Shown: in pieces, positions 9,732 to 48,963 of the stretch
Numbering within the stretch: position 1 is the first letter of the stretch
Layout: each line of letters opens with the position of its first letter
Source: Bacteroidales bacterium
GTDB lineage: Bacteria; Bacteroidota; Bacteroidia; Bacteroidales; GCA-2711565
Direction: 5' to 3'
Assembly (NCBI GenBank): GCA_963675215.1
Contig: OY775914.1
Location: forward strand, 3,672,653 to 3,736,652
Length of the DNA: 64,000 bases
Program-made: the position numbers and the translations under genes
The notes under the pieces: generated by a model
The model's database searches: none
What the model was told of the DNA's origin: nothing
The model's input: the letters and a program-made list of their open reading frames with translations, nothing else

Positions 9732-11333
9732 ATAAAGTACCATTACAATCACACTTAGCAGTATTGCCGATACATTAAACTTAACATCAGTTTTAAACAT
9801 ACTTCGCTTTAGTTCTAATCCTTGCTTCTGAATTTTATTGCTCGTATAGCTAATTATAATAGCCATCAATGCCAACAAAAGAAAAACAAGTCCCATTCTA
9901 TCAATGAAAGGAATTGAGGGCAATGCCAGCTTAAATACAAACGAGAGTGGTATGGTTAAAACAGCAACAGTAAGGGCGGCATCTGCATTAATTCGCTTCC
10001 AAAATAACCCAAAACAGAAAATTACCACAACACCCGGGGTCACAAAACCTGTGAATTCCTGAATGTATTGAAAGGCCTGATCAAGGTTTCCCAGAAGAGG
10101 TTGAGCTGATAAAACCGCAATAATTAAAGCAACAAAGCTTGTGATTCTTCCAACGTTCACCATTTTTGTGTCACTCACATCTTTATTAATAAACTTCTTG
10201 TAAATATCCATCGTGAATATGGTTGAAGTTGAATTAAGCATCGATGCTAATGATGATACAATTGCGGCTGCTAAGGCTGCAAAAGCAAGGCCTCTGATCC
10301 CGGCAGGAACATAATTATGCAATAACCAGGGATAAGCTTTATCCGAGGGGTCAATCAGTCCACTATCTCGAGTAAGTACAAAGGCTGCAATCCCTGGTAT
10401 TACTACAATTAATGGAATTAATATCTTTAAATATCCGGCGAAAATCACTCCTCTTTGTGCTTCCTTTATGCTTTTTGCAGCCAATCCTCGTTGAATGATA
10501 TATTGATTGAAACCCCAGTACGATAAATTGGCAATCCACATCCCCCCTACTATGACTCCTATTCCCGGCAAATCCATGTAGGCATCTTTCATGCCACCAT
10601 TCCCATCAGGAATCATCAATTCACCTTCTTTTAAAATCATGTTAAACTTTTCAGGTGCCTGATCCAACAAATTCATAAAGCCTGCAATTACCCCTTGCCC
10701 ATCCGATACTGCATCCAAGGCCAGAAATGTGGTAACCAAACCACCTCCAATTAAAAAAATCACTTGTACAACATCTGTCCATGCAACTGCTTTAAGTCCA
10801 CCATAAATTGAATAAACAGCCGCAAAAAGCGCCAATCCGATGATTGCATAACCAATCGGTATGCCCATGATGGTCTCAATAGCCAAAGCCCCTAAATATA
10901 AAACCGAAGTAAGGTTTACAAAAACATAAACGACTAGCCAGAAAGTTGCCATTGCTGTTCTTACCCTGCCATCGTATCTCATTTCTAAAAACTGAGGCAT
11001 GGTATAAATTTTCTTTTCTAAAAAAACCGGCAAAAAATATTTACCAACGATGATCAGTGTAATTGCGGCCATCCATTCGTAAGATGCAATTCCTAAACCA
11101 ATGGCGTAACCAGAACCCGACATCCCTATCATTTGTTCGGCCGAAATATTGGCCGCAATCAGCGAAGCACCAATGGCCCACCATGGCAATGACTTACTTG
11201 CTAAAAAATAATCCTGGGCAGTTTTTTTAACCCCTTTTTTGGTTCGTGATACCCATAAACCGATTACGACAATTAACAAACAGTAGGTGATAAAAACGAT
11301 ATAATCAAGTGAAGAAAATCCTTGGTTGGTCAT
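9717..11333 (-). CDS. Sodium:solute symporter (SSF/SGLT family)
   Basis: 538 aa with about 13-14 hydrophobic spans and SSF-typical stretches (YFLASKSLPWWAIGASLIAANISAEQMIGMSG). Confidence 0.9.
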   Translation of the reverse strand: MTNQGFSSLDYIVFITYCLLIVVIGLWVSRTKKGVKKTAQDYFLASKSLPWWAIGASLIAANISAEQMIGMSGSGYAIGLGIASYEWMAAITLIIVGKYFLPVFLEKKIYTMPQFLEMRYDGRVRTAMATFWLVVYVFVNLTSVLYLGALAIETIMGIPIGYAIIGLALFAAVYSIYGGLKAVAWTDVVQVIFLIGGGLVTTFLALDAVSDGQGVIAGFMNLLDQAPEKFNMILKEGELMIPDGNGGMKDAYMDLPGIGVIVGGMWIANLSYWGFNQYIIQRGLAAKSIKEAQRGVIFAGYLKILIPLIVVIPGIAAFVLTRDSGLIDPSDKAYPWLLHNYVPAGIRGLAFAALAAAIVSSLASMLNSTSTIFTMDIYKKFINKDVSDTKMVNVGRITSFVALIIAVLSAQPLLGNLDQAFQYIQEFTGFVTPGVVVIFCFGLFWKRINADAALTVAVLTIPLSFVFKLALPSIPFIDRMGLVFLLLALMAIIISYTSNKIQKQGLELKRSMFKTDVKFNVSAILLSVIVMVLYLLFW

Positions 11334-33273: not shown

Positions 33274-33374
33274 ATGTACATAATTTAATTTTATAGGTCA
33301 TATGAAACTCGCATGTAAGGTTTTCATCCTTGTTTATGATTAAAAAACATGCTCGTTTCATAATTATTAAATAT

Positions 33375-33857
33375 TTAAGGTGATTGGTTTTTTATAATCA
33401 GGATATTTTCAAATTCTTTAAGGAGGTTTTTATATGAATAATAGCCATCATGTCGAAAAAATTCTTTTCCATTAACATCAAGCAGCACTTGAGTTGGGAT
33501 GCTTGCAATTCCATAATATTTCATCAGCATTTGGTTCTCAGGTAAAAGGGCGTTTACAAAAACAACATTTATTTCTGGATGTTTTTCGGCTACCTCTTCT
33601 AACACAGACTCCATTCTTTTACAAGCACTACAACCTTTTGCGCCAAATTCAAGAAATGTTAATTCAAATTCTTTTTTATTTTTTTGATAATTGAAAACAG
33701 AATCGACATAAGCTGAAGCTTTAAAGACAACTTCTTCACCTGCCTGTTGCTTCATCAATTCAGAAATATAAATATTCATTTTACTCCGCATGGAAATCCC
33801 AATTACGATGAGCGCTATAAACACAAAAGCGATTATCCAGGGAATAACTTTTTTCAT
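33375..33857 (-). CDS. Membrane-anchored thioredoxin-fold protein (CxxC)
   Basis: N-terminal hydrophobic anchor and GAKGCSACKRME redox motif. Starts 19 nt after the selD stop on the same strand. Confidence 0.75.
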   Translation of the reverse strand: MKKVIPWIIAFVFIALIVIGISMRSKMNIYISELMKQQAGEEVVFKASAYVDSVFNYQKNKKEFELTFLEFGAKGCSACKRMESVLEEVAEKHPEINVVFVNALLPENQMLMKYYGIASIPTQVLLDVNGKEFFRHDGYYSYKNLLKEFENILIIKNQSP

Positions 33858-33876
33858 GATCTTTTTTTATCAGAAA

Positions 33877-34914
33877 CTAATTTAAGATTTTTATTAACTC
33901 CTCCCCTTTTTCGGTCAAATAACCAAACGAATGTGCAAGCAAATTTTGCTCTTTCAAAATTGCTTCAACTTGATCGATAGCTTCATCCGAAACTGCGATT
34001 AAAAGCCCTCCACTTGTTTGTGGATCACATAAAATATGTTGTTGTTCGGGTTTAGGTATGTTTAATTTATGTCCGTAACTATCCCAATTTCTATTAGTTC
34101 CACCCGGTATGGCCCCTGCTTTTAAATATTTAATGGCCTCAGGAAATATGGGAACCTTACCATAATCGATGACAGCAGAAACTTCACTTCCTTCACACAT
34201 TTCAATCAAATGGCCCATTAAACCAAAACCAGTCACATCAGTCATGGCTGAAACCCCGGAAAGATTTGCCAGCTCCACGCCAACTTTATTTAACAACATC
34301 ATCGAATCTGGAGCAATTTGCGCATCCTTCTCTTCTAATATTCCTTGTTTTTGTGCCGTAGCCAAAATCCCCACACCGAGTGGTTTTGTGAGATAAAGTT
34401 TTGACCCAGGCTTGGCGCTACTATTTTGCTTTAATTTTGAGATCTCAACCTTGCCGGTAACTGCCAATCCAAAAATCGGCTCCGGGTTATCAATGCTATG
34501 ACCACCAGCTAAGATAATTCCCGCATCCCTACAAACTGCTCTTCCACCCTCCATTACCTTTGCAGCAATTTCAGCAGACAATTTATTAATGGGCCAACCT
34601 AATATGGCAATAGCCAAAAGAGGTTTCCCTCCCATCGCATAAACATCACTAATGGCATTAACCGCGGCGATTTTCCCAAAGGTATAAGGATCGTCAACGA
34701 TAGGCAGAAAGAAATCTGTTGTGCTGATAATGGCTGATCCATCTCCTAAATCATAAACAGCTGCATCGTCGCGGCTATGATTTCCAACCAGTAAATTTTT
34801 ATCAACTTCCTGTTGAATATTGGTTGTTAAAATCGTATCCAGAACTTTGGGTGAAATTTTACAACCGCACCCCGCTCCATGACTGTATTTCGTTAACCTG
34901 ATTTTATTTTCCAT
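33877..34914 (-). CDS. selD: Selenide, water dikinase (selenophosphate synthetase), Cys-type
   Basis: 345 aa. N-terminal [12 protein letters not shown] (Cys, not Sec, with the Lys), AIR-synthase-like fold motifs DDAAV and TDFF. Confidence 0.93.
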
Positions 34915-35944
34915 TTCCTATTTCTTTTAGAAGATAATTTGCATTTTCTTCATGATTTGTTGTTTCAAATTTAATTTCTTTAATTCTTTCAGGTTTCCGG
35001 CGAGATAGTCCTTTTAAGTAAAACTTGTCGTAATACATCAAGGTGATCATCGCTACTTCAAAAAAATCGTTTTTCTCAAGCGATTCAAGTGCACGCTTAA
35101 CCTGGTCATATCCTAATCTTTTTTTAATCCGATCAATGGAGGATGCAAGTTCTTCTTTATTTAGATTTCCGTATTCCTTAACCAGATATTTTGCACGTTC
35201 TACTCTGGGGATATTTAAAAAATACACCCAACTGGTTTCCATTTGTTTAAATAATGAAGGTGGAATAAATGCAGATCCAATATGGCGGCTTTCATCTTCC
35301 ATCCATATTGGTTTTTCGAAATCCAGAAATCTCATTTTTTCGAACAAATTACTTTCGAATTGTTCAACCGAAGGTTGTATTCCCATGCTAATTCCTCCAA
35401 ATGCCGATCCCCGATGATGTGCAATTGCTTCTAGATCAATCACCTGACATCCGTTTGCAAGAATATATTCTAATATTTTTGTTTTTCCACTGCCTGTATA
35501 ACCTCCGATAATATGCAATTTAAAAGGCTGATCAAAAAACTGCAAAACATGATTTCGAAAAGCCTTGTAGCCACCTTCGATTAAATAAACTTGTTCAAAT
35601 CCATTTTCTAAAAGATGTTGTGCAAATGCAGCGCTTCTCATTCCACCTCTCCAGCAATGAACAATTACTTTTCCATCTACTGCGACTTTTTTTGAATCAT
35701 CAATAAAATATTGGAGTTTGGGTTTGACAAATTTCATCCCGATGTTAACAGCAATTTCTTTGGATTGGCGGGTGTAAGCAGTTCCGACTGTTGCCCTTTC
35801 TTTATCAGAAAATAAAGGGATACTTCTGGCATTTGGAATATGCCCCTTTGTAAATTCACCAGGTGAGCGAACATCAATGATCGGTAAATCTGAATACTTT
35901 TTGTAATATTCAGCAATGGTAATCTTTGTTGGACTTCGCTCCAT
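34904..35944 (-). CDS. selU: tRNA 2-selenouridine synthase
   Basis: 346 aa. Rhodanese active-site loop HCWRGGMRS and P-loop GGYTGSGKT. Overlaps selD by 11 nt. Confidence 0.9.
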
Positions 35945-36041
35945 TTTACGAATTTATTATTTTGCCATCCCAATGAAAAATCAGGTTTGATCCTTTGGCA
36001 AAATTAACAAATAAAATGTGGTAATCTAATCACAATTTGGT

Positions 36042-36821
36042 TTAAGCCTGAGTCGAAATTTTTGAAAATAATCCTTTTAATTTTTGCTCATAAATTTCAT
36101 TGATTTGCGTTTCATGTTCGCCAATTGGTTTAACAGGGATCAAGTCATTAACTTCATCGAAGGTCAAAGTATCGTTAAATTGCAGATTTAAAGCGGCCAT
36201 TAAGCTTTGATAAACTGCTTGTTCCGATTCACCGGAAGCCAAGCCAAACGCTTTACCCAGATCCACTAATTTCTGCCATTGAAACCAAAAATAAGTGGGT
36301 GCCATTGCTGAAACAATTGCATAGGCTTCTAATTTCACCTCATCAACCTCAAAAGTAGGTCCCAATAGTTTTAACCAATTTAGTAAACTATTTTTTTCGC
36401 TCTTTTTAAAGGCAGAAGAAAAACTTATTGGATTATAACCCTCGTTAATTACTGAAGTTGCATTTGGAATTAAACGAGCCACTTTTAACACATTAAGTGT
36501 TGATTGGAATTTTTGAATTGATATTTTTGGTGCCATTGAAAGCAAGATGGTTTTTTCCGAAATCTCACTTTTTATTTCCTTTAGCACATCCATTATAGCA
36601 GGCGGGTGTAGCGCAATAACAACAAACTCTTGTTTGGCAGCTTCGCAGTTTTGATTCGTACACTGAATACCGTGGAACTGCTTTTCCATGTTATCCAGAA
36701 TTTCCGGATTTGTATCGCTAACGATAATTGAATTTAACTCAAACTGCTTATTTTGTAAAGCCTGAAGAATTATTCGGGTAATTCTACCCCCTCCGATAAA
36801 TCCGATTGATACATTTTTCAT
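36042..36821 (-). CDS. Pyrroline-5-carboxylate-reductase-family NAD(P) oxidoreductase (divergent)
   Basis: Rossmann GFIGGGRI and RLIPNATSVINEG, similar to the P5CR R-x-MPN-x-P region. The C-terminal dimerisation motif is divergent. Confidence 0.65.
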   Translation of the reverse strand: MKNVSIGFIGGGRITRIILQALQNKQFELNSIIVSDTNPEILDNMEKQFHGIQCTNQNCEAAKQEFVVIALHPPAIMDVLKEIKSEISEKTILLSMAPKISIQKFQSTLNVLKVARLIPNATSVINEGYNPISFSSAFKKSEKNSLLNWLKLLGPTFEVDEVKLEAYAIVSAMAPTYFWFQWQKLVDLGKAFGLASGESEQAVYQSLMAALNLQFNDTLTFDEVNDLIPVKPIGEHETQINEIYEQKLKGLFSKISTQA

Positions 36822-36886
36822 CTTTTATGGTTTTTAAATTAAAAATAGTTTTAGTCTTTTCGTATGCCTTTTATGTGTTTTCTTAT

Positions 36887-37207
36887 CTAATTTGTTTTAC
36901 CTTTATTAAAGTCAAGGTCTGCTATTCGTAAATATTTGAACTTGGTAAAATTGTGTTGCTCCATCATCCATTTCACACAGTTAAAGGGACTACCATCAAT
37001 CATCAGTAAATCTTTGGTTTTAAAATATTCGTTTGGATTTTTAATTCCGGAATCAACAAGTGTCAAGTAATTCATTGTACGTACACTATTTACATTTAGT
37101 TTACGGACAACTAAATTGTAACTATGCCCAAAGTCGGATGCTTCTGAACAAGCCATTACAAAGTATTTGCCCAAGCTACATAAGTAATTTTCTTTTTTTG
37201 TTTCCAT
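36887..37207 (-). CDS. Hypothetical protein
   Basis: 106-aa ORF, 13 nt downstream of the TauE gene on the same strand. No motif recognised. Confidence 0.4.
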   Translation of the reverse strand: METKKENYLCSLGKYFVMACSEASDFGHSYNLVVRKLNVNSVRTMNYLTLVDSGIKNPNEYFKTKDLLMIDGSPFNCVKWMMEQHNFTKFKYLRIADLDFNKGKTN

Positions 37208-37220
37208 ATTACTTTGGATT

Positions 37221-37958
37221 TTAAAACAATTTAAGTCCCATTTTTACAGCCATAATTAATAGAATAATTGAAAGTATTTTTTTCACTATTTTCGGATTTA
37301 ACTGCTTTTGCATGAAGATGGTTCCAATTGTTGCCCCTACAATACCTGCAAGAGATGTGATTATCAACAACCTCCAATTAATTGTTCCAATTGACCAGTA
37401 AGTAAGAAATCCTGATAATGAAGAAAATGGAACAACAAAAGCGGTTATTGTTGTGATTTTTTTTGGATTAAAACCCATCATTAACAAAAGTGGAGAAATA
37501 ATTCCACCACCACCAATACCCAGCATCCCTGATATTAAACCTGCAACCGCACCAATAAGTGACAGAGAAAAATAAGGTATGTCTTCTCGATGATTAGATT
37601 CCTTTTTATTCCTAAAAAACAGAAACATAAATCCTGAGAATAACAAAAAAGAAACAAACATAAGTAACACAATATGTGATGAAATGTATTTCGACAGATA
37701 AGCACCAACACTTGCAAAAATAAATGAAAAGATAATAATAGGTATGCCTAATTTAAAATCAAGTCGTTTGTTTTTAATATTGTTAATACTTGCACCCGTC
37801 AAACTTATGGTGTTGTAAAATAAACCTACAGGTTTTGCAACCGATAGAGGAATCCCGAAAGTATCCATAATTGGAATCAATATAATTGCAGCCCCTACAC
37901 CTCCGAGAGAAAAAATAAGGGCAGCAAAGAAAGAAATTACAGCTAAATAATATTCCAC
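37221..37958 (-). CDS. TauE/SafE family anion exporter/permease
   Basis: 245 aa, about 8 TM spans, duplicated G-rich motif (GGVGAAIILIP / GIGGGGIISP). Confidence 0.85.
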   Translation of the reverse strand: MEYYLAVISFFAALIFSLGGVGAAIILIPIMDTFGIPLSVAKPVGLFYNTISLTGASINNIKNKRLDFKLGIPIIIFSFIFASVGAYLSKYISSHIVLLMFVSFLLFSGFMFLFFRNKKESNHREDIPYFSLSLIGAVAGLISGMLGIGGGGIISPLLLMMGFNPKKITTITAFVVPFSSLSGFLTYWSIGTINWRLLIITSLAGIVGATIGTIFMQKQLNPKIVKKILSIILLIMAVKMGLKLF

Positions 37959-37971
37959 AATATGATGTTAA

Positions 37972-38574
37972 TTATTTTTCCGAACAAGGAATACATACCC
38001 TTTTACCATCAATAATTTTTGATTGATTGTCAAATACAATCTCATTACATTTTGAGCAATTATGCCAATCAAAAGTTCCCTTTGGTAGTTGTACTTCTTT
38101 CTCGAAAAGTTCACTTACTAAAAACATCACATTCTCATCCATTTGTTTCACATTTTCAATTAGTGGCATTACCAATTCGGGTTTGATATCCTTAGGTTCA
38201 ACTTTTTGTTTTCGGAGCTTTACAAATTCAGAATCCAAAGCCTTTTCAAAAAATTCTGGACGCATTGAAACTCTTACGGCATTCTTTGTTTTTAGATCAA
38301 CCAAAACAATCGCATTTTTTCCATAATTTAACTTTTCAGCAATTCCTTTTCCATAGGTACAGCCCGTTGCAGCCATCACTCCATCTAAAAAACAAGCAGC
38401 TGCATGTGCCGGCCCATTTTCACAAAAAAGATACAATTCTTTATTACTGGCTTTTTCAACACCAAGTTTTTTCATTGCGGTCAAACCTGCACGATAACCA
38501 ATTGGCATTGCAGGGCATTTATGTCCGTGAAATTCAAATGCCCATTCTGGTATCTCTACTTTTTTATTTTCCAT
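37972..38574 (-). CDS. FmdE-domain protein with a C-terminal zinc-ribbon
   Basis: FHGHKCPAMPIGYRAG FmdE signature. C-terminal CSKC-x18-CIPC. Confidence 0.8.
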   Translation of the reverse strand: MENKKVEIPEWAFEFHGHKCPAMPIGYRAGLTAMKKLGVEKASNKELYLFCENGPAHAAACFLDGVMAATGCTYGKGIAEKLNYGKNAIVLVDLKTKNAVRVSMRPEFFEKALDSEFVKLRKQKVEPKDIKPELVMPLIENVKQMDENVMFLVSELFEKEVQLPKGTFDWHNCSKCNEIVFDNQSKIIDGKRVCIPCSEK

Positions 38575-38584
38575 AATTTCTATT

Positions 38585-39658
38585 TTAGAATTTATACTCC
38601 ATACTTAACATTAGCCAATTTTGAGGTTTAACTCCTTCCTTGGGTAACCATCCTTGATAATTAAATGAGAGTTGAACCCCATTGATGGGTGAATGAGACA
38701 CTCCTCCCATCATTGAATTTCCATTACCTATAATAGTGAGATTTTCTATGGGAACTTCTTCAAAAAGGAGTCGATCAAAGCGTGCAAAAATCATGGTCTT
38801 TTTGTTTATGTTAATAATACTATAAAAAGAATACCCCCAGCTATTTAAACCTAAATTGTATTCTAAATTATGTATATAATTGAATTCACCGCCGATGCGA
38901 AATTTTGATATTAGCTTGTATCCTATAAAAACAGAGAACAATTCTTCGTTTACTTTATTATCTTTTGTTGACTGTTTATTATGATAATATATTCTGGATT
39001 GGACATTTTTAATAGGATTGATATTTATGCCAACTGCCATTTTAATCTTTCCGAAAGCATCTTGTTTTAGCCGTGGTCCTTCGCCATTGGTAATCGCTGC
39101 ATCAAAAGATATCGCTTCACTCAATTTATAATATGCAATAAACCCAAGATCACTACTGGGTAAGTGCCAGTGCAAATCCTGAAAGGTTTGGGCCACATAA
39201 CGCAATCCCCAAAATCGTTCTTGAGTAATATAATGGTTTTGTAAAATTGCACCTCCTTCAAAAGTCAGCTTATCATTTACGTTCCATTGCAAGCTCGCAA
39301 ATTTCAAGAACATTGAATAGTATGAACCTTCCTTAGAAGTATTTTGAATTTCGAGTGGATTGCCTTCTAGATCATTAACTGTAATTTCTCCAACCGAAGT
39401 TGCCCTACCTCTATCAATAATTATTTTAGCACTCCAATTATCATTAAAATTATACTTAAATCCTAAATGCGCTCGACCAAAATTATAATCATATCTATTT
39501 TCATCGAAATTGTAAGATGCTGTTCCAAAGATTTGCACAATAGGTGTTACGTTTTCATAAAAATGCTTATTTTGTGCAAATAGATAGAACCCATTAACTA
39601 TAAAAAATAGTGTAATAATTACTGTTTTCAATTTATATGATTTAAAAAATACTACCAT
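38585..39658 (-). CDS. Outer-membrane porin-like beta-barrel
   Basis: Signal sequence ending FAQ, alternating beta-strand pattern, C-terminal ...LSMEYKF (terminal Phe). Overlaps the upstream permease gene by 17 nt. Confidence 0.6.
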   Translation of the reverse strand: MVVFFKSYKLKTVIITLFFIVNGFYLFAQNKHFYENVTPIVQIFGTASYNFDENRYDYNFGRAHLGFKYNFNDNWSAKIIIDRGRATSVGEITVNDLEGNPLEIQNTSKEGSYYSMFLKFASLQWNVNDKLTFEGGAILQNHYITQERFWGLRYVAQTFQDLHWHLPSSDLGFIAYYKLSEAISFDAAITNGEGPRLKQDAFGKIKMAVGININPIKNVQSRIYYHNKQSTKDNKVNEELFSVFIGYKLISKFRIGGEFNYIHNLEYNLGLNSWGYSFYSIININKKTMIFARFDRLLFEEVPIENLTIIGNGNSMMGGVSHSPINGVQLSFNYQGWLPKEGVKPQNWLMLSMEYKF

Positions 39659-40985
39659 AAAGCATACCTGAAATAGTTGCCATTATCACTACAAGACTTA
39701 TATAAACTAACGTCTTTTTATTTCCCAGAACTCCTCGAATAACTAACATATTTGGTAATGACAAGGATGGTCCAGCTAATAATAAAGCCAGAGCAGGACC
39801 CTTACCCATTCCAGAAGCTATTAATCCTTGTAGAATTGGAACCTCAGTTAAGGTAGCGAAATACATAAAAGCTCCAACTATTGAAGCGAAGAAGTTTGAG
39901 AAAATGGAATTCCCACCAACAAGCCATTGAATCCATTCATTAGGAATTATACCGGCAATAGTTTGTCCATCATGTGTTGACCCAAGTAAGAATCCTGCTG
40001 TCACTACACCAATTGCTAATAATGGTAGGATTTGTTTTGCAAAATCCCAACTTGCCATTGTCCACTCTTTGTTCTCTTCTTCTTTTTTGTCAAAAAGAGT
40101 TATTATACTCAATGAAGCAATACCAATTAACATAGGTACCAAAGGAGCAAGTTTTGTATTCTCAATAAAAGTTGTAGATAAAACTGCTGATAGAGCTGTG
40201 GCAATTACGGCATATAATACCCATTGCCATTTTATTTTTAATATATATATCAACGAAAATGCTAGCATTAAACTAAAGAATCCCGTAATATACCATTTGT
40301 AAGCCCATATATAATACCATGTACTTGAAGTATCACCACTTTCAGGGCTACCCCAATTAGCAAATACCAGAATAATTACCAGAGTAAAAAAGTGAAATGA
40401 AGTTTGCCACATCGGACGCTTCTCGGGAGGTAATTCGATATTCATTTGTTCTTCCCGCTTTATTTTTTCTTCTTTTCTATATATAAGTGACATGGCTATA
40501 CCGATAATCACACTAAATGCTACGGCACCAATAACTCGGGCTACACCCATTTCGAAGCCCAAGATTCGGGCGGTCAGTATGATGGCTAATATATTAATCG
40601 CTGGTCCAGAATATAAAAAAGCTATGGCTGGACCTAAACCAGCACCACGCTTATGAATACTTGAGAACAAAGGCAAAATAGTGCAACTACAAACGGCTAA
40701 GATAGTTCCTGAAACAGCAGCCACTGTATAGGCTAACCATTTTTTTGCATTGGCTCCAAAATATCTTAATACAGAACCCTGGCTAACAAATACGGAAATT
40801 ACACCAGCAATAAAAAATGCAGGTAATAGACAGAGTACTACATGTTCTCTGGCGTACCATTTAACAAGATCAAGGGTTGCTGCAATAGCTGTATTAAATC
40901 TTGCACTATCAATTGGCAAGAAAAATGCAACTCCAAAAACTATGGCGATCCATAATAGGATTTTTAATTCTTTGCGATTTTCCAT
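39642..40985 (-). CDS. ArsP-type / PF03773-like inner-membrane permease
   Basis: 447 aa, two-lobed polytopic. Intramembrane vicinal cysteines AVCSCTILPLF, as in ArsP-family permeases. Confidence 0.75.
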   Translation of the reverse strand: MENRKELKILLWIAIVFGVAFFLPIDSARFNTAIAATLDLVKWYAREHVVLCLLPAFFIAGVISVFVSQGSVLRYFGANAKKWLAYTVAAVSGTILAVCSCTILPLFSSIHKRGAGLGPAIAFLYSGPAINILAIILTARILGFEMGVARVIGAVAFSVIIGIAMSLIYRKEEKIKREEQMNIELPPEKRPMWQTSFHFFTLVIILVFANWGSPESGDTSSTWYYIWAYKWYITGFFSLMLAFSLIYILKIKWQWVLYAVIATALSAVLSTTFIENTKLAPLVPMLIGIASLSIITLFDKKEEENKEWTMASWDFAKQILPLLAIGVVTAGFLLGSTHDGQTIAGIIPNEWIQWLVGGNSIFSNFFASIVGAFMYFATLTEVPILQGLIASGMGKGPALALLLAGPSLSLPNMLVIRGVLGNKKTLVYISLVVIMATISGMLYGSIF

Positions 40986-41010
40986 TTTTAAATTATAATT
41001 AACTGTTAAG

Positions 41011-41032
41011 ATGTTCGTAGATTAACGAACAT
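41011..41032. promoter_or_regulatory. Putative ArsR-family operator 3: ATGTTCG-N8-CGAACAT
   Basis: Perfect 7-8-7 palindrome in the 138-nt gap upstream of the permease gene. Same core as the sites at 42491 and 42829. Confidence 0.6.
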
Positions 41033-41123
41033 ACCTCGTAAATTTTTTTTATTTATTATTACAATTAAACGATACTCTATTATTTTCTTTTTCAAACATT
41101 AAGTCTCTAATTTAGAACAGCTT

Positions 41124-41822
41124 CTAAAAGTATATTGTTATAACATAATATACACCAACAAATATGAATAAAACAGCAATGATTCGTCTAAACCATAATT
41201 CAAACGATTTAAGTTTATTATATACATTCCCAATCGAACCCATGCTAAAAGCGATAAGCCAAGCGAAAATTATGACAGGAACACCTGTTCCAATGGCAAA
41301 AAATAAAGGCAAATACAATCCACTTGCACTGCTGATTGTTATAGGGATGAGCATACCGAAATAGAGGACTCCACTATAAGGACAAAATGCCAAGGCAAAT
41401 ACAATTCCCAATAAAAGCACTCCCCAGAAACCACTATTCGATTTTTTTTCCATCATTTCAGTTAACGAACCAGTACCTGGTATCTTTAGTCTTATGATCC
41501 CAAGCATAAAAAGACCGATAATAATTAAAAGAGGGCCTAATATTTTTTCACCCCATTCCTGAATAAATCCGGCAAACTTGAACTGGCTTGCACCAAAATA
41601 GAACAATAATCCGATGGCTGTGTAAGAAATAGCTCGCCCTAAAGTATAGACCAAACCATTAATGAATACCTTACGTTGATTTGCAATATCCTTACTAATA
41701 AACCCAATAGCAGTAATGTTGGTTGCTAAAGGGCAGGGACTTATGGAAGTCATAAGTCCCAATATAAGTGCTGTTAGAATTGGGAATTGTGAAATTTCCA
41801 AAAGGTTCTGTAGAAAATCCAT
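41124..41822 (-). CDS. CcdA/DsbD-like transmembrane thiol-disulfide electron transporter (DsbD_2-type)
   Basis: 232 aa, 6 TM spans, intramembrane Cys in SISPCPL and FCPY. Confidence 0.7.
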   Translation of the reverse strand: MDFLQNLLEISQFPILTALILGLMTSISPCPLATNITAIGFISKDIANQRKVFINGLVYTLGRAISYTAIGLLFYFGASQFKFAGFIQEWGEKILGPLLIIIGLFMLGIIRLKIPGTGSLTEMMEKKSNSGFWGVLLLGIVFALAFCPYSGVLYFGMLIPITISSASGLYLPLFFAIGTGVPVIIFAWLIAFSMGSIGNVYNKLKSFELWFRRIIAVLFIFVGVYYVITIYF

Positions 41823-41823
41823 A

Positions 41824-42231
41824 TTATAATAGTGAATCTAAAGTAGATTTCAATTTAAGTTTAAATTTTTCAGGGTTACTTCTTGCATTTAAAAAAGCTT
41901 CGTTGGTTAAGTTTATAACCTTATCACCCTTTACAATTAACAAAGTCTGACCACTAATCTGATATTTCTCAACAAGTGCCTTATTCTCATCTTTTTCTCG
42001 ATTGAAAATCTTAAGTGAAACTTTATCAGCATAAGATTCATTGATCACTTCAATGGAAACAGCTTCAACTGCCTTGCAGGTAACACAGCGATTGGTTGCA
42101 TGGAAATAATATGCTTTGACACTGGTCTCATCTTGATTACTACTTGCAATTTCTTTGTTTTGATTTTGCGCCGAAACTGCAACCATACCTACTAGAATCA
42201 TTAGACTTAAAATACTTACTACTTTTTTCAT
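41824..42231 (-). CDS. Secreted CxxC protein (thioredoxin-like partner of CcdA, function unknown)
   Basis: Signal peptide MKKVVSILSLMILVGMVAVSAQ and redox-type NRCVTCK. 1-nt gap to the ccdA-like gene. Confidence 0.5.
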   Translation of the reverse strand: MKKVVSILSLMILVGMVAVSAQNQNKEIASSNQDETSVKAYYFHATNRCVTCKAVEAVSIEVINESYADKVSLKIFNREKDENKALVEKYQISGQTLLIVKGDKVINLTNEAFLNARSNPEKFKLKLKSTLDSLL

Positions 42232-42239
42232 TGTATTAT

Positions 42240-42473
42240 TTATTTAGTTAATAATTGTGATATTTCATCAGATGATGGGACCCTCCCTTTTACAATAACT
42301 TTTCCGTCGACCACCAAAGCAGGAGTAGTCATTACGCCAAATTGCATGATTTCAACGATGTCTTCTACCTTAGTTACGGTTGCTTGAATTCCGGCTTTTT
42401 CAACCGCTTCAATTGTTGCTTTCTCCAGCGACTTACATTTTGCACATCCTGTGCCTAAAACTTTTATTTCCAT
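42240..42473 (-). CDS. Redox-active disulfide protein 2 (small thioredoxin, Thioredoxin_3 / TM0996-MTH895 type)
   Basis: 77 aa. MEIKVLGTGCAKCKSLE signature and TTPALVVDGKV. Confidence 0.85.
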   Translation of the reverse strand: MEIKVLGTGCAKCKSLEKATIEAVEKAGIQATVTKVEDIVEIMQFGVMTTPALVVDGKVIVKGRVPSSDEISQLLTK

Positions 42474-42490
42474 TAGATTATATATTTAGT

Positions 42491-42510
42491 TGTTCGCAAA
42501 ACAACGAACA
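42491..42510. promoter_or_regulatory. Putative ArsR-family operator 2: TGTTCG-N8-CGAACA
   Basis: Perfect 6-8-6 palindrome in the 53-nt gap between arsR and the small thioredoxin gene. Confidence 0.6.
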
Positions 42511-42526
42511 TGTGTTACAAAAAAAA

Positions 42527-42826
42527 TCAAATATTAAAAAATTCCTTCATCAATAATTTTGCTTCAGCCCAATTTTCTTTATTTACGCAATACTTGATTC
42601 TGGGAGCTTCAGTCTCACCCTGAATCAATCCAGCATCTTTTAATTCTTTTAAGTGCTGAGAAAGTGTTGATTTGGCAATGGTTAATTCTTCGCTCAAATC
42701 TCCACTATAACAACAACTCTGCTTTGAAAGTAAATTAAGGATAAACACACGGGTAGGGTGACCCAATGCCTTTGCATATCTGGCCATCTTAACCTGCTCA
42801 TCACCTATATTTGCTTCTTTACCCAT
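42527..42826 (-). CDS. ArsR/SmtB family metalloregulatory repressor
   Basis: 99 aa. LGHPTRVFILNLL, wHTH STLSQHLKELKDAGLI. Cys pair in SCCYSGDL sits at the position of the ArsR ELCVCDL site. Confidence 0.9.
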   Translation of the reverse strand: MGKEANIGDEQVKMARYAKALGHPTRVFILNLLSKQSCCYSGDLSEELTIAKSTLSQHLKELKDAGLIQGETEAPRIKYCVNKENWAEAKLLMKEFFNI

Positions 42827-42828
42827 AG

Positions 42829-42850
42829 TTGTTCGTTAATTACCGAACAA
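42829..42850. promoter_or_regulatory. Putative ArsR-family operator 1: TTGTTCG-N8-CGAACAA
   Basis: Perfect 7-8-7 palindrome beginning 3 nt upstream of the arsR ATG. It overlaps the -7 promoter motif by 3 nt. Confidence 0.6.
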
Positions 42851-42855
42851 AGATA
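42848..42855 (-). promoter_or_regulatory. -7 promoter motif TATCTTTG for arsR
   Basis: Exact TAnnTTTG on the minus strand, 21 nt from the arsR ATG. Confidence 0.45.
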
Positions 42856-42880: not shown

Positions 42881-45391
42881 CTATTTGAAATATTTTTTTA
42901 TTTTATCCATGAGCATTTTTTTATTGATCGGTTTTGAAATATAATCATCACATCCTGCTTGCGATAATTTTTCGCGATCACCTGGAATGGCATATGCTGT
43001 TTGGGCAATGATTGGCATATCGGGGCACATTTCTTTTATTTTCATGGTGGCTTCATAACCATCCATTCTCGGCATATTAATATCCATTAAAACCAGTTTG
43101 ATATCGGGATCGTTTTTACATGATAGAATCGCTGCTTCACCACTTTTCACGCATATCGTATTAATCCCTGATTTTTTGAGTAGTATTTTTAAAAAACTTA
43201 AACTTAAATCATCGTCTTCAACAATCAATATTTTTTCCTTTTTACCATCACTAAGCGCTTGTATTTTCAAATTAGCATCATTTTCATCAGGTAAAAAATC
43301 ATTAAAAGGTACTGTAAAATAGAATGTTGACCCTGTTTGCTCATCCGTATCAAGCCACATCTTTCCACCTAATATTTCAGTCAGTCTTTTTGCAATTGTC
43401 AACCCAAGTCCTATACCTCCATATGTTCTTGAATGCGTTTCTTCAATTTGCCTGAACATCTCAAAAATAATTTTTTTCTTTTGTTTAGGGATCCCTATTC
43501 CGGTATCTTTCACAAAAAACTCCAAAAATGATTTGTCATGATCCTGCTTAACATTAAACCCATATTCAACTGTTCCTTTTATGGTAAACTTTAGTGCATT
43601 TTTCAGCAGATTAATTAAGATTTGTTTAAATTTTAAGGGATCAGTATTTAAACTAATTTCTTTATTTACCTCCGGTGTTGTCAATTTTAATTCAATATGA
43701 ATCTTGTCGGTGTTCTGTTGCTCGACGATTATTAATTCATTAATTTCATTCAACAAACTTATTAGGTTTACTTTTTCTTTAACCAGATTAACTTCACCCG
43801 TTTCGATCAAAGCAATCTCAAAAATGTCCTCTACGATACTCAACAGATTATTTCCACTAATATTAATGGATTTATTAAACTGCATAATTTCGGATAGCGG
43901 CAAATTTTCATTTCTTATTATTTCGGAAAATCCAATAACGGCATTAAGCGGGGTTCGTAACTCGTGCGACATGGTTGCCAGAAATACAGATTTCAATTGA
44001 TCTGATTCAGTTGCTTTGGCAAGCGCATCTTTAAGCTCTTGTTCAGCATTTTTACGATCAATCGAGATACTTATTTGCTCTGAAATAAATTCCAGTACCT
44101 CCATATCTGATTTATCATAGGCAAACTCATCGGTGTAACTCTGAACTGCAAGCACACCAATTACATCACCCTTTAATTTGAGAGGCACACCGAGCCATAT
44201 TTCGGAATCAGATCCAAATCTACCCACCTCATCAGCCTCCTCTAATTCTTTTATTTTATTTTTTGTTGCAAGTAATGGTTTTTTCGTTTTTATAACATAA
44301 TTAGTAAGCGTTTTACCAGCGGGGATAGATGTTACCTTATCTTTTTCATCAGCGATAAAGGGTAAGGAAATCGTATCATTTTCAGAATGATAAAGGGCTA
44401 TATAAAAATTTGTTGTATCAATAACAGCACCTAACTCTACTTTGATCTTGCCAATTAGTTTTATCAAATTATCCGTTGTATTTGCTGCATTCGAAATATT
44501 AAACAAAACCTTCTGTAACTTTTCCGAATGCTTTCGTTTTGTAATATCACGGATAAATGCAATCACCATTGGTTCAGCATCAACATACATAATCGCGACA
44601 CTCATATCTAAATTCAAAAGTTGGCCATTTTTACGCCTATGCTTTGTTTCAGTTCGGGTGCATCCATCTTTAACCAACCTTTTTATCCTTTTGTTTTTTT
44701 CCGTCTCACTCAGGTCAATATCTAACTCGCGTATATTCATATCCAATAACTCTTTACGCGTATATCCAATCAGTTTGCAATAGGCCGGATTAACATCAAT
44801 AACTCTACCCTCAGGATTTGTTAAAATGTAACCTTCCATCGTATTTTCAAGAATGAGTTGGTTACGAAGAGATAATTTTTTCAACTTATCTTCCGTATGT
44901 CGGTGCTTAAGAATTTCTGATTGTAGAACCTCATTTTTTTGTGAAAGCTCGATTGTCCTTTTTTCCACAAGCTCTTCCAAATCTCTTTTCTCTTTTCTCA
45001 GTCTGTCTTCAGCCTCCTTAATTCGTAACATTACATTTATCTGAGCAATAAATTCGGCAGGCTCAATTGGTTTCGACAAAAAAGCATCTGCCCCAATATT
45101 TAAGCCTTGTATTCTGCTTTCAGTATCATTTTTTATGGCTGTTATTAGTACCACAGGAATATGTTTGGTTAACTCATCATTTTTTAGCTTTTTACAGGTT
45201 TCAAAACCATCCAAGCCCGGCATAATAATATCCAAAAGAATGGTATCTGGCTGTGTTTTTCTTGCAATTTGAATTCCATCTTCCCCAGACAATGCTGTAT
45301 GCACGATGCAGTCAATAATATGTTCATTAATTAGCGCACTAATTGTTATGAGGTTATTTCTTTTGTCATCAATAATAAGGATGGATTTCAT
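42881..45391 (-). CDS. Hybrid sensor histidine kinase / response regulator (REC - coiled coil - PAS - GAF - HisKA - HATPase - REC)
   Basis: 836 aa. H-box SHELRTPLN, DTGIGI, GGIGLGLTIA, receivers at both ends. The N-terminal ~150 aa are clearly paralogous to the kinase at 3639-6002. Confidence 0.9.
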   Translation of the reverse strand: MKSILIIDDKRNNLITISALINEHIIDCIVHTALSGEDGIQIARKTQPDTILLDIIMPGLDGFETCKKLKNDELTKHIPVVLITAIKNDTESRIQGLNIGADAFLSKPIEPAEFIAQINVMLRIKEAEDRLRKEKRDLEELVEKRTIELSQKNEVLQSEILKHRHTEDKLKKLSLRNQLILENTMEGYILTNPEGRVIDVNPAYCKLIGYTRKELLDMNIRELDIDLSETEKNKRIKRLVKDGCTRTETKHRRKNGQLLNLDMSVAIMYVDAEPMVIAFIRDITKRKHSEKLQKVLFNISNAANTTDNLIKLIGKIKVELGAVIDTTNFYIALYHSENDTISLPFIADEKDKVTSIPAGKTLTNYVIKTKKPLLATKNKIKELEEADEVGRFGSDSEIWLGVPLKLKGDVIGVLAVQSYTDEFAYDKSDMEVLEFISEQISISIDRKNAEQELKDALAKATESDQLKSVFLATMSHELRTPLNAVIGFSEIIRNENLPLSEIMQFNKSINISGNNLLSIVEDIFEIALIETGEVNLVKEKVNLISLLNEINELIIVEQQNTDKIHIELKLTTPEVNKEISLNTDPLKFKQILINLLKNALKFTIKGTVEYGFNVKQDHDKSFLEFFVKDTGIGIPKQKKKIIFEMFRQIEETHSRTYGGIGLGLTIAKRLTEILGGKMWLDTDEQTGSTFYFTVPFNDFLPDENDANLKIQALSDGKKEKILIVEDDDLSLSFLKILLKKSGINTICVKSGEAAILSCKNDPDIKLVLMDINMPRMDGYEATMKIKEMCPDMPIIAQTAYAIPGDREKLSQAGCDDYISKPINKKMLMDKIKKYFK

Positions 45392-45637: not shown

Positions 45638-45671
45638 ACAAAAAAAAGCCCTCCATAAACTGAAGGGCTTT
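45638..45671 (-). terminator. Intrinsic terminator after tRNA-Ser
   Basis: Minus strand: aaagccct / agggcttt stem followed by a T8 run, 8 nt after the tRNA 3' end. Confidence 0.8.
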
Positions 45672-45679
45672 AATTTTTG

Positions 45680-45764
45680 CGGAGAAAGAGGGATTCGAAC
45701 CCCCGGAGGTTTGACCCTCAACGGTTTTCAAGACCGCCGCATTCGACCACTCTGCCATTTCTCC
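45680..45764 (-). tRNA. tRNA-Ser (anticodon UGA)
   Basis: Reverse complement GGAGAAATGGCAGAGTGGTCGAATGC...GGTCTTGAAAACC...GGTTCGAATCCCTCTTTCTCCG. 7-bp acceptor stem, long variable arm, CT-TGA-AA anticodon loop. Confidence 0.9.
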
Positions 45765-48823: not shown

Positions 48824-48918
48824 CTATTCCAATAGGGGTGCCCAAAAATGACGGGCTGAGAACATACTCGTATAACCTGATCCGGATAATGCCGGCGTAG
48901 GGAAAAACTGAACGAATT
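48824..48918 (+). promoter_or_regulatory. TPP (THI-box) riboswitch
   Basis: AATAGGGGTGCCC...GGGCTGAGA...ACTCGTATAACCTGATCCGGATAATGCCGGCGTAGGGAA matches the conserved TPP aptamer core almost base for base (GGGGUGC, CUGAGA, ACCUGAUCUGGAUAAUGCCAGCGUAGGGAA). Aptamer ends are approximate. Confidence 0.9.
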
Positions 48919-48963
48919 ATATTTTCCTCTGTTGGTTTTTTATAAACATAAAAAATCAATAAA

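Follow-up and report, generated by a model that had tools for sequence, protein, structure and literature searches.

The window considered here is a stretch of 64,000 nucleotides from a Bacteroidales bacterium (contig OY775914.1, positions 3,672,653 to 3,736,652), in which a run of minus-strand genes leads from an ArsR-type repressor to a selU-selD pair and a membrane-anchored thioredoxin. We find that the region 36042-42849, together with the anchored thioredoxin gene at 33375-33857, is probably an ars-type island for metalloid detoxification, repressed by ArsR and of a sort that is widespread among marine and anaerobic Bacteroidales, a reading whose observed basis is made up of gene families, cysteine motifs, operators, synteny counts and the promoter box of selU. 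The selU-selD pair is an ordinary housekeeping unit for tRNA selenation which has its own promoter and which, in one clade, is nested between two genes of the cluster. The initial annotation of this DNA had instead proposed an inducible pathway that handles a selenium or other metalloid species and continues functionally into selU-selD, naming as its alternative an arsenic or organoarsenical detoxification island that merely sits beside these two genes.

The thirteen co-directional minus-strand open reading frames then listed between 33375 and 42855 are all in place, and so are the motifs quoted from their products (SCCYSGDL, GCAKC, RCVTCK, SPCP and FCPY, AVCSCT, the C-terminal phenylalanine of the barrel and CSKC..CIPC). 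Searches with the hidden Markov models of Pfam and NCBIfam agree with the family names that had been given, and the 106-residue protein that had been left as an unknown turns out to have a DGC domain. From arsR to the anchored thioredoxin the successive intergenic gaps are 53, 8, 1, 138, -17, 10, 13, 13, 65, 97, -11 and 19 nt. The features of the cluster are as follows.

42830-42849, minus strand: operator 1, TGTTCG-N8-CGAACA, an exact palindrome 23 nt upstream of arsR
42527-42826, minus strand: ArsR/SmtB repressor, 99 residues (HTH_5 PF01022, 55 bits, cut-off 22; NF033788, 67 bits, cut-off 55)
42491-42510, minus strand: operator 2, an exact palindrome 37 nt upstream of trx3/arsE
42240-42473, minus strand: cytoplasmic Thioredoxin_3 (Trx3) of the ArsE family, also called 'redox-active disulfide protein 2', with GCAKC (PF13192, 98 bits; TIGR00412, 119 bits, cut-off 62)
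41824-42231, minus strand: secreted thioredoxin-like CxxC protein of the ArsF family, 135 residues, with a signal peptide and RCVTCK (NF040494, 101 bits, cut-off 60)
41124-41822, minus strand: CcdA/DsbD_2-type membrane protein of the ArsG family, with SPCP and FCPY (PF13386, 82 bits; NF040495, 318 bits, cut-off 200)
41012-41031, minus strand: operator 3, an exact palindrome 46 nt upstream of the permease gene
39642-40985, minus strand: PF03773 (ArsP_1) permease of the long type, with AVCSCT (244 bits)
38585-39658, minus strand: outer-membrane porin, 357 residues, with a signal peptide and a C-terminal Phe (predicted barrel; 232 homologues; no Pfam match at gathering score)
37972-38574, minus strand: FmdE-domain protein with a C-terminal CxxC..CxxC zinc ribbon (PF02663, 104 bits; PDB 2gvi, E 9e-43)
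37221-37958, minus strand: TauE/SafE-family anion permease (PF01925, 150 bits)
36887-37207, minus strand: degenerate DGC-domain protein, 106 residues (PF08859, 41 bits, cut-off 27)
36042-36821, minus strand: divergent P5CR-family NAD(P)H oxidoreductase (F420_oxidored, 49 bits; proC, 104 bits, below the cut-off of 197)
35999-36010, minus strand: selU -7 box TTGTTAATTTTG, which follows the pattern TAnnTTTG and lies 55 nt ahead of the start codon (ATG) of selU
34904-35944, minus strand: SelU/MnmH, tRNA 2-selenouridine synthase (NF008750, 349 bits, cut-off 241)
33877-34914, minus strand: SelD, selenophosphate synthetase, in its cysteine and not its selenocysteine form, overlapping selU by 11 nt (NF002098, 537 bits, cut-off 299)
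33375-33857, minus strand: N-terminally anchored periplasmic thioredoxin with GCSACK (PF00085, 38 bits)
33301-33362, minus strand: stable hairpin 3' of the anchored thioredoxin gene (minimum free energy -19.7 kcal/mol, z -3.67, with 0 of 200 shuffles as stable)

This clustering is not due to chance, since dozens of species have the same set of genes. One genome per species was scanned with the porin, which gave 73 loci, each with no more than 10 kb of sequence to either side; the proteins of the window were mapped onto these loci by tblastn, all open reading frames were clustered, and counts were taken over the 64 loci with a barrel identity of 31% or more. In 56/64 loci the flanks hold one or more of the core genes (ArsR, Trx3, ArsF, ArsG or PF03773 permease). 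The permease itself, be it long, short or split, is found at 46 of the 64, mostly directly upstream of the porin, and at the many loci that seemed to lack it the gap holds a short PF03773 form of 347 residues with PFCSCS. Other recurrent neighbours are the DGC protein, after the barrel (26/64), the anchored thioredoxin (19/64), a free, Cys-tailed rhodanese (16/64) and the P5CR-like protein (13/64, 11 of these loci being without selU and selD). ArsC-like, Acr3 or ArsM proteins are encoded in the flanks of 14/64 loci, with scores of 417 bits for Acr3 (cut-off 283) and 345 for ArsM (cut-off 263), against only 2/64 for SelU plus SelD (L001 and L002), a difference in recurrence that is among the grounds for an arsenic-type reading. 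Three loci (L017, L038, L067) have a split pair of YeeE/YedE-type Sulf_transp proteins (PF04143) and a rhodanese encoded just downstream of the porin cluster.

Exactly three exact copies of TGTTCG-N8-CGAACA occur in the 64 kb, all of them in intergenic gaps at the head of the cluster, and with at most one mismatch the palindrome is found in the 73 related loci before arsR (18), trx3 (7) and the PF03773 permease gene (14), and it recurs at positions equivalent to those of the window in about 35 of them; at the permease-less L036 and L046 it stands directly before the porin gene. This conserved palindrome is the putative phylogenetic footprint of the ArsR operator, and the three predicted operators define three candidate units, namely arsR, trx3-arsF-arsG and permease-porin-fmdE-tauE-DGC(-P5CR). 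The -7 box of Bacteroidetes promoters has a TAnnTTTG-like consensus, and the left half-site of each operator overlaps a box of this type, as read by eye: operator 1 overlaps TATCTTTG and operator 3 the -7-like box TATGTTCG. A scan for sigma-70 promoters and terminators gave nothing above shuffled sequences in the gaps of the cluster, and an Rfam search returned no match within it. As to the repressor, its three cysteines (C38-C39 in CCYSGDL and C80 in KYC) are kept in all 27 aligned homologues, and its closest relatives in the PDB are YgaV, CmtR and ArsR, the best being YgaV; this candidate metalloid site is aligned neither with the CVC site of R773 nor with the ligands of CmtR. The proposal of an ArsR-controlled unit has thus held up, the unit being probably inducible as judged from conserved predicted operators and recurrent synteny. 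The arsR promoter and operator sit right behind the stop codon of a hybrid histidine kinase gene (REC-PAS-GAF-HisKA-HATPase-REC, 42881-45391, minus strand), which ends 54 nt before arsR; a kinase of this kind beside arsR is not recurrent in the related loci.

Next to arsR, the genes for Trx3, the 135-residue CxxC protein and the CcdA-like protein are adjacent and in the order E-F-G, and all three products score above the NCBIfam cut-offs for ArsE, ArsF and ArsG. The CxxC of Trx3 is conserved among its homologues, as is the R-C-x-T-C of ArsF, a protein which has weak thioredoxin matches besides NF040494, while the SPCP and FCPY motifs of ArsG are both present in 32 of 39 homologues. Since the CxxC pair is conserved in Trx3, ArsF and the anchored thioredoxin, and export is provided by a signal peptide or a transmembrane anchor, the suggested cytoplasm-to-periplasm thiol relay, from Trx3 through ArsG to ArsF and the anchored thioredoxin, is supported as a prediction by cysteine motifs, families and synteny. 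The DsbD model gives the ArsG-type protein only 36 bits against a cut-off of 330. Homologues of the anchored thioredoxin (45-58% identity) are encoded right after the barrel or the DGC gene at loci without selU and selD (L009, L027, L028, L032, L036, L047, L048, L067).

The permease belongs to the long type, distinguished by some 100 inserted residues, and has an intramembrane cysteine pair (AVCSCT); this CSC pair is kept in 26/27 long and 17/17 short homologues. That it is tightly linked to its own porin is corroborated by the recurrent synteny. The 17-nt overlap that had been reported for the two genes stands if the porin starts at the ATG at 39658, and is replaced by a 10-nt gap if it starts at the TTG at 39631; the start is ambiguous within 39629-39658 (minus strand), and the TTG yields MKTVIIT..., in agreement with the N-termini of homologues. 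The porin has a signal peptide and ends in ...MEYKF, and its 232 homologues, essentially all Bacteroidales-like, form a strongly conserved alignment. Its AlphaFold2 model is a barrel of about 16-18 strands (predicted local distance difference test score 72), for which Foldseek retrieves the 16-strand porins Omp32, which is anion-selective, and OmpK36, with probability 1.00 and template-modelling scores of 0.42-0.48. No Pfam or NCBIfam family covers it: OMP_b-brl reaches 16 bits against a cut-off of 28.7, and BBP2 is sub-threshold in the relatives.

About one in six of the porin homologues (for example P0047, P0077, P0085 and P0102) carries an N-terminal rhodanese after the signal peptide, with the loop YCTNxxR[ST], and such a fusion is found at 10/64 loci (L009, L012, L015, L017, L019, L020, L022, L033, L040, L042); it is a predicted periplasmic sulfurtransferase-like domain tethered to the porin. 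Distant homologues of the porin (24-31% identity) are encoded immediately upstream of pstS-pstC-pstA-pstB-phoU (L065, L066, L068, L069; barrel at about 10001-10980), which suggests an oxyanion-porin ancestry and a family that includes porins of phosphate systems. The porin motifs FWGxRY..FQD and TNGEG were considered as marks of arsenic specificity and rejected: they are shared with these pst-linked relatives and are therefore signatures of the family, not markers of specificity.

FmdE follows the ArsR-Trx3-ArsF-ArsG-permease block in other genomes, with or without the barrel, and in several of them FmdE and TauE stand together behind the block, including the porin-less L074-L077; TauE is always paired with FmdE (L003, L006, L009, L074-L078). 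The identity of the FmdE and TauE proteins is 89-97% where that of the porin is only 58-67% (comparison of L003, L004, L006, L009 and L074-L078), and the FmdE cluster at 90% identity has 132 members. By these comparisons of sequence the FmdE-TauE pair is under unusually strong constraint. A recently transferred cassette was discarded as an explanation, as in L003 and L006 the identity at the DNA level is about 80% and runs on into the barrel gene, and the GC content is unremarkable. When the DGC copy of the window is compared with 26 homologues, two conserved cysteines are seen to be lost from it (MNCL to MNYL, DGC to DGS) together with some 20 C-terminal residues, and the gene is absent from L001; in the window it is possibly decaying.

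From these elements we infer the inducer, the path of the electrons, the direction of transport and the role of the porin. ArsR, with its three-cysteine site, would bind TGTTCG-N8-CGAACA, overlapping the -7 boxes of three promoters, until a trivalent metalloid that reacts with thiols, most likely As(III) in inorganic or organic form, frees it from the operators. Trx3 would then pass reducing equivalents through the two-cysteine ArsG to ArsF and the anchored thioredoxin in the periplasm, the Cys-pair PF03773 permease would expel the toxicant from the cytoplasm, and the co-expressed porin would be its exit through the outer membrane.

Several points weigh against this assignment. None of arsC, acr3, arsB and arsM is among the genes of the window's cluster, and the link to arsenic comes from family names and from neighbours in other genomes. 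The permease reaches no NCBIfam equivalog cut-off, the nearest models being the Cu/Zn exporter SO_0444 (121 bits, cut-off 300) and SaoE (116 bits, cut-off 325). The best PDB relative of ArsR, YgaV, is not an arsenic sensor. A chemistry of sulfur or chalcogens is indicated by neighbours such as rhodanese, TauE and YeeE-like proteins. Lastly, there is no significant terminator between the P5CR-like gene and selU, so that in the clade of the window selU-selD may be co-transcribed with the island.

The chemistry of these neighbours is the starting point of what we consider the best-surviving alternative, unlikely as it is: that the regulon deals with sulfur in reactive form (persulfide, polysulfide or sulfite) or with thiolated metalloids such as thioarsenic species, as are typical of sulfidic sediments, by means of rhodanese, TauE, the periplasmic thiol relay and an anion porin. 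It would account for the rhodanese-porin fusions and for the free Cys-tailed rhodaneses, for the TauE/SafE permease and for the YeeE-like Sulf_transp proteins of some loci, and it is in line with YgaV as best structural relative of ArsR, with a weak similarity of the latter to BigR, and with source records that are mostly sediment, saline and other environmental metagenome-assembled genomes. However, the BigR model gives only 36 bits against a cut-off of 155, and sensors of the BigR type have two distant cysteines, whereas the ArsR found here has a CC plus C triad. Neither a rhodanese nor a YeeE is present in the window, and the Acr3, ArsM and ArsC-like neighbours argue for arsenic itself as the selective agent.

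The detoxification island also has to be weighed against the selenium proposal, in which the island reduces a selenium (chalcogen) species, carries it over the inner and the outer membrane and supplies or protects the SelD/SelU pathway, selU-selD being part of an ArsR-controlled unit. This we hold to be quite improbable. What speaks for it is that selU-selD lies between the P5CR-like gene and the anchored thioredoxin gene in five related genomes, and in these only (the window, L001, L002, L079 and L080), that in the window 19 nt separate selD from the latter, and that no significant terminator intervenes from the permease promoter to the anchored thioredoxin; to this may be added sub-threshold similarities to the selenoprotein-associated NCBIfam models SaoE, SaoT, TsoX and TsoB, and the split YeeE/YedE-like transporters with rhodanese mentioned above. 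The survey of neighbourhoods gives a different picture, as selU and selD are missing from the roughly 10-kb flanks of 62/64 porin loci; L001 and L002, which do have them, are the closest relatives of the window and therefore represent one event. Both of them have the M64 peptidase and FabG genes downstream as well, as in the window, which indicates ordinary local synteny. Approached from SelD, the order ArsR..ArsF-ArsG-permease-P5CR-SelU-SelD-Trx without porin is found at 90% identity, a decayed copy of the cluster followed by P5CR-SelU-SelD-M64-FabG at 82%, and SelU-SelD-M64, with the upstream side lost to the contig end, at 78%; at 77% and 76% the pair is unlinked (ABC-F / SelU-SelD / HEPN-NTase), as it is, in an unrelated context, at 73%. 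The linkage is thus confined to genomes with a SelD 77-94% identical to that of the window, and even among these it does not occur in all, and as far as these genomes indicate it is a single-clade trait. L080 (1803-4576) has a fused ArsR-Trx3 call, a truncated ArsG and fragments for the permease, next to an intact P5CR-SelU-SelD; assembly errors are possible there.

The control of selU likewise sets it apart from the cluster. The DGC/P5CR and P5CR/selU gaps are free of operator copies in all five selU-linked genomes, the window included. A conserved Bacteroidetes-type -7 box (TTGTTAAWTTTG), as part of TTGTTAA(T/A)TTTG, precedes the selU ATG by about 55 nt in the window, L002, L079, L080 and the unlinked L081; in the window it reads TTGTTAATTTTG (35999-36010) and is unique, and the L001 variant, TTGTTACTTTTG, still fits TAnnTTTG. 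Conservation of this box even in an unlinked genome suggests that selU has a promoter of its own. Furthermore, no in-frame TGA that would indicate a selenocysteine variant stands at the cysteine positions of any homologue across the 73 loci, the stops seen being pseudogene-like only, and the selD neighbours that PMC9312934 lists in its summary of Lin et al. 2015 (YedE, YedF, DUF3343, LysR_Se) are other families. A functional continuation of the island into selU-selD is therefore not upheld, given an adjacency confined to one clade, the missing operator, the -7 box of selU and arsenic neighbours at 14 loci against 2. The adjacency is not conserved, a finding which the initial annotation itself had set against its selenium proposal; the selenium reading therefore fails, and the alternative that was stated with it, a metalloid detoxification island, is favoured, with one amendment: the P5CR-like protein and the anchored thioredoxin are members of the cluster elsewhere, and selU-selD is therefore nested inside the island and not merely adjacent to it.

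As regards transcription, neither the DGC/P5CR nor the P5CR/selU gap has a significant hairpin, and the terminator scan found nothing in any gap of the cluster. The sole significant hairpin is that after the anchored thioredoxin, which has no U-tract and was missed by the scan; it may be the end of the transcription unit or a regulatory RNA structure. There is accordingly a slim chance that in this clade the whole forms one unit, in which read-through from the permease promoter by way of P5CR-selU-selD to the anchored thioredoxin couples the two-membrane conduit to selenophosphate synthesis. If true, this would be a route of selenium acquisition or safeguarding without YedE and YedF, the cargo being a selenium or thio-arsenic species, or more generally a chalcogen or metalloid that reacts with thiols.

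Very improbable, finally, is an export of divalent or soft metals (Cu, Zn, Cd) by a permease like SO_0444, with the relay repairing metal-damaged periplasmic cysteines: the Cu/Zn efflux family SO_0444 is the top NCBIfam match of the permease, ArsR is weakly similar to the Cd/Pb sensor CmtR, and the Cys-rich DGC protein and FmdE ribbon could bind zinc, but the SO_0444 score is far under its cut-off, genes of the CDF, P-type ATPase and CopZ types are not recurrent in the 73 loci whereas those for Acr3, ArsM and ArsC-like proteins are, and it is trivalent metalloids for which vicinal CxC pairs and S3 sites are typical.

Beyond the cluster, a tRNA-Ser(TGA) gene with a strong intrinsic terminator behind it (a stem of 11 bp and a T-run; 45645-45764, minus strand), upstream of the hybrid histidine kinase gene, is the upstream boundary of the co-directional gene run, and a TPP riboswitch (61 bits against an Rfam gathering score of 54) is located at 48824-48920 on the plus strand. 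The upstream histidine kinase and the downstream M64 peptidase were both considered as members of the cluster and rejected, as neither recurs with it in related loci.

If the detoxification reading is true, the island amounts to an ars-type regulon equipped with an outer-membrane component, for which we found no description in the literature searched. Models of arsenic efflux end at the inner membrane, and a conserved porin under operator control, fused in some loci to a rhodanese, would then address the question of how toxic arsenicals, trivalent or thiolated, get out of a diderm cell. The predicted ArsR operator and its three promoters provide a ready-made system for inducer tests in marine Bacteroidales. 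For selenium biology the outcome is mainly negative, in that the selU-selD neighbourhood found here gives no ground for inferring a new selenium transporter without transcript data.

Among known systems, ArsEFG of Shewanella putrefaciens, reportedly so named by Chen, Zhang and Rosen in 2019, is said to combine nitro-reduction of roxarsone and nitarsone with efflux of the amino products. The trio of the window resembles it in scores above the ArsE, ArsF and ArsG cut-offs, adjacency, E-F-G order and a position next to arsR. Its two transmembrane cysteines and their CxxC partners in cytoplasm and periplasm would suit a generic CcdA thiol relay just as well as that role; we know of no porin linked to the Shewanella system. 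With the CcdA-ResA/StoA and DsbD relays the island has in common a two-cysteine membrane protein, a cytoplasmic donor and secreted and anchored acceptors, and it differs from them in its ArsR-type control, in its linkage to transporters and in not being associated with cytochrome c maturation or sporulation. Selenium genes linked to selD are comparable as regards the adjacency to selD/selU in the window and four relatives, but YedE, YedF, DUF3343 and LysR_Se are all missing from the window, the linkage is clade-restricted and there is no regulatory site in common. ArsP has been reported to efflux MAs(III) (trivalent methylarsenite) and trivalent roxarsone (PMC6205960). The permease of the window resembles ArsP of Campylobacter jejuni in its PF03773 domain and in a CxC pair within a membrane segment, and differs in being of the long form, below equivalog cut-offs and linked to a porin.

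The closest precedent is given by the ars operons described by Castillo and Saier (2010, PMC2963123), which include CcdA, a thioredoxin, redox-active disulfide protein 2 and ArsP, and for which electron transfer mediated by CcdA was proposed; arsC was present in 7 of 8 operons, often with arsA and arsD, and ArsP fell into two size classes, of about 300 residues and of about 400 residues with an insertion of about 100. The island has the same four families under ArsR, and the two size classes match the short and long permeases found here, whereas arsC, arsA and arsD are all missing from the window. The CcdA/thioredoxin/ArsP module under ArsR is thus already known since 2010; the porin family, the rhodanese fusions, the three-operator regulon and the extra conserved members appear to be undescribed. 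What the island has beyond these operons is its porin, the DGC and P5CR-like proteins, the FmdE-TauE pair, the anchored thioredoxin and three promoters under predicted operator control.

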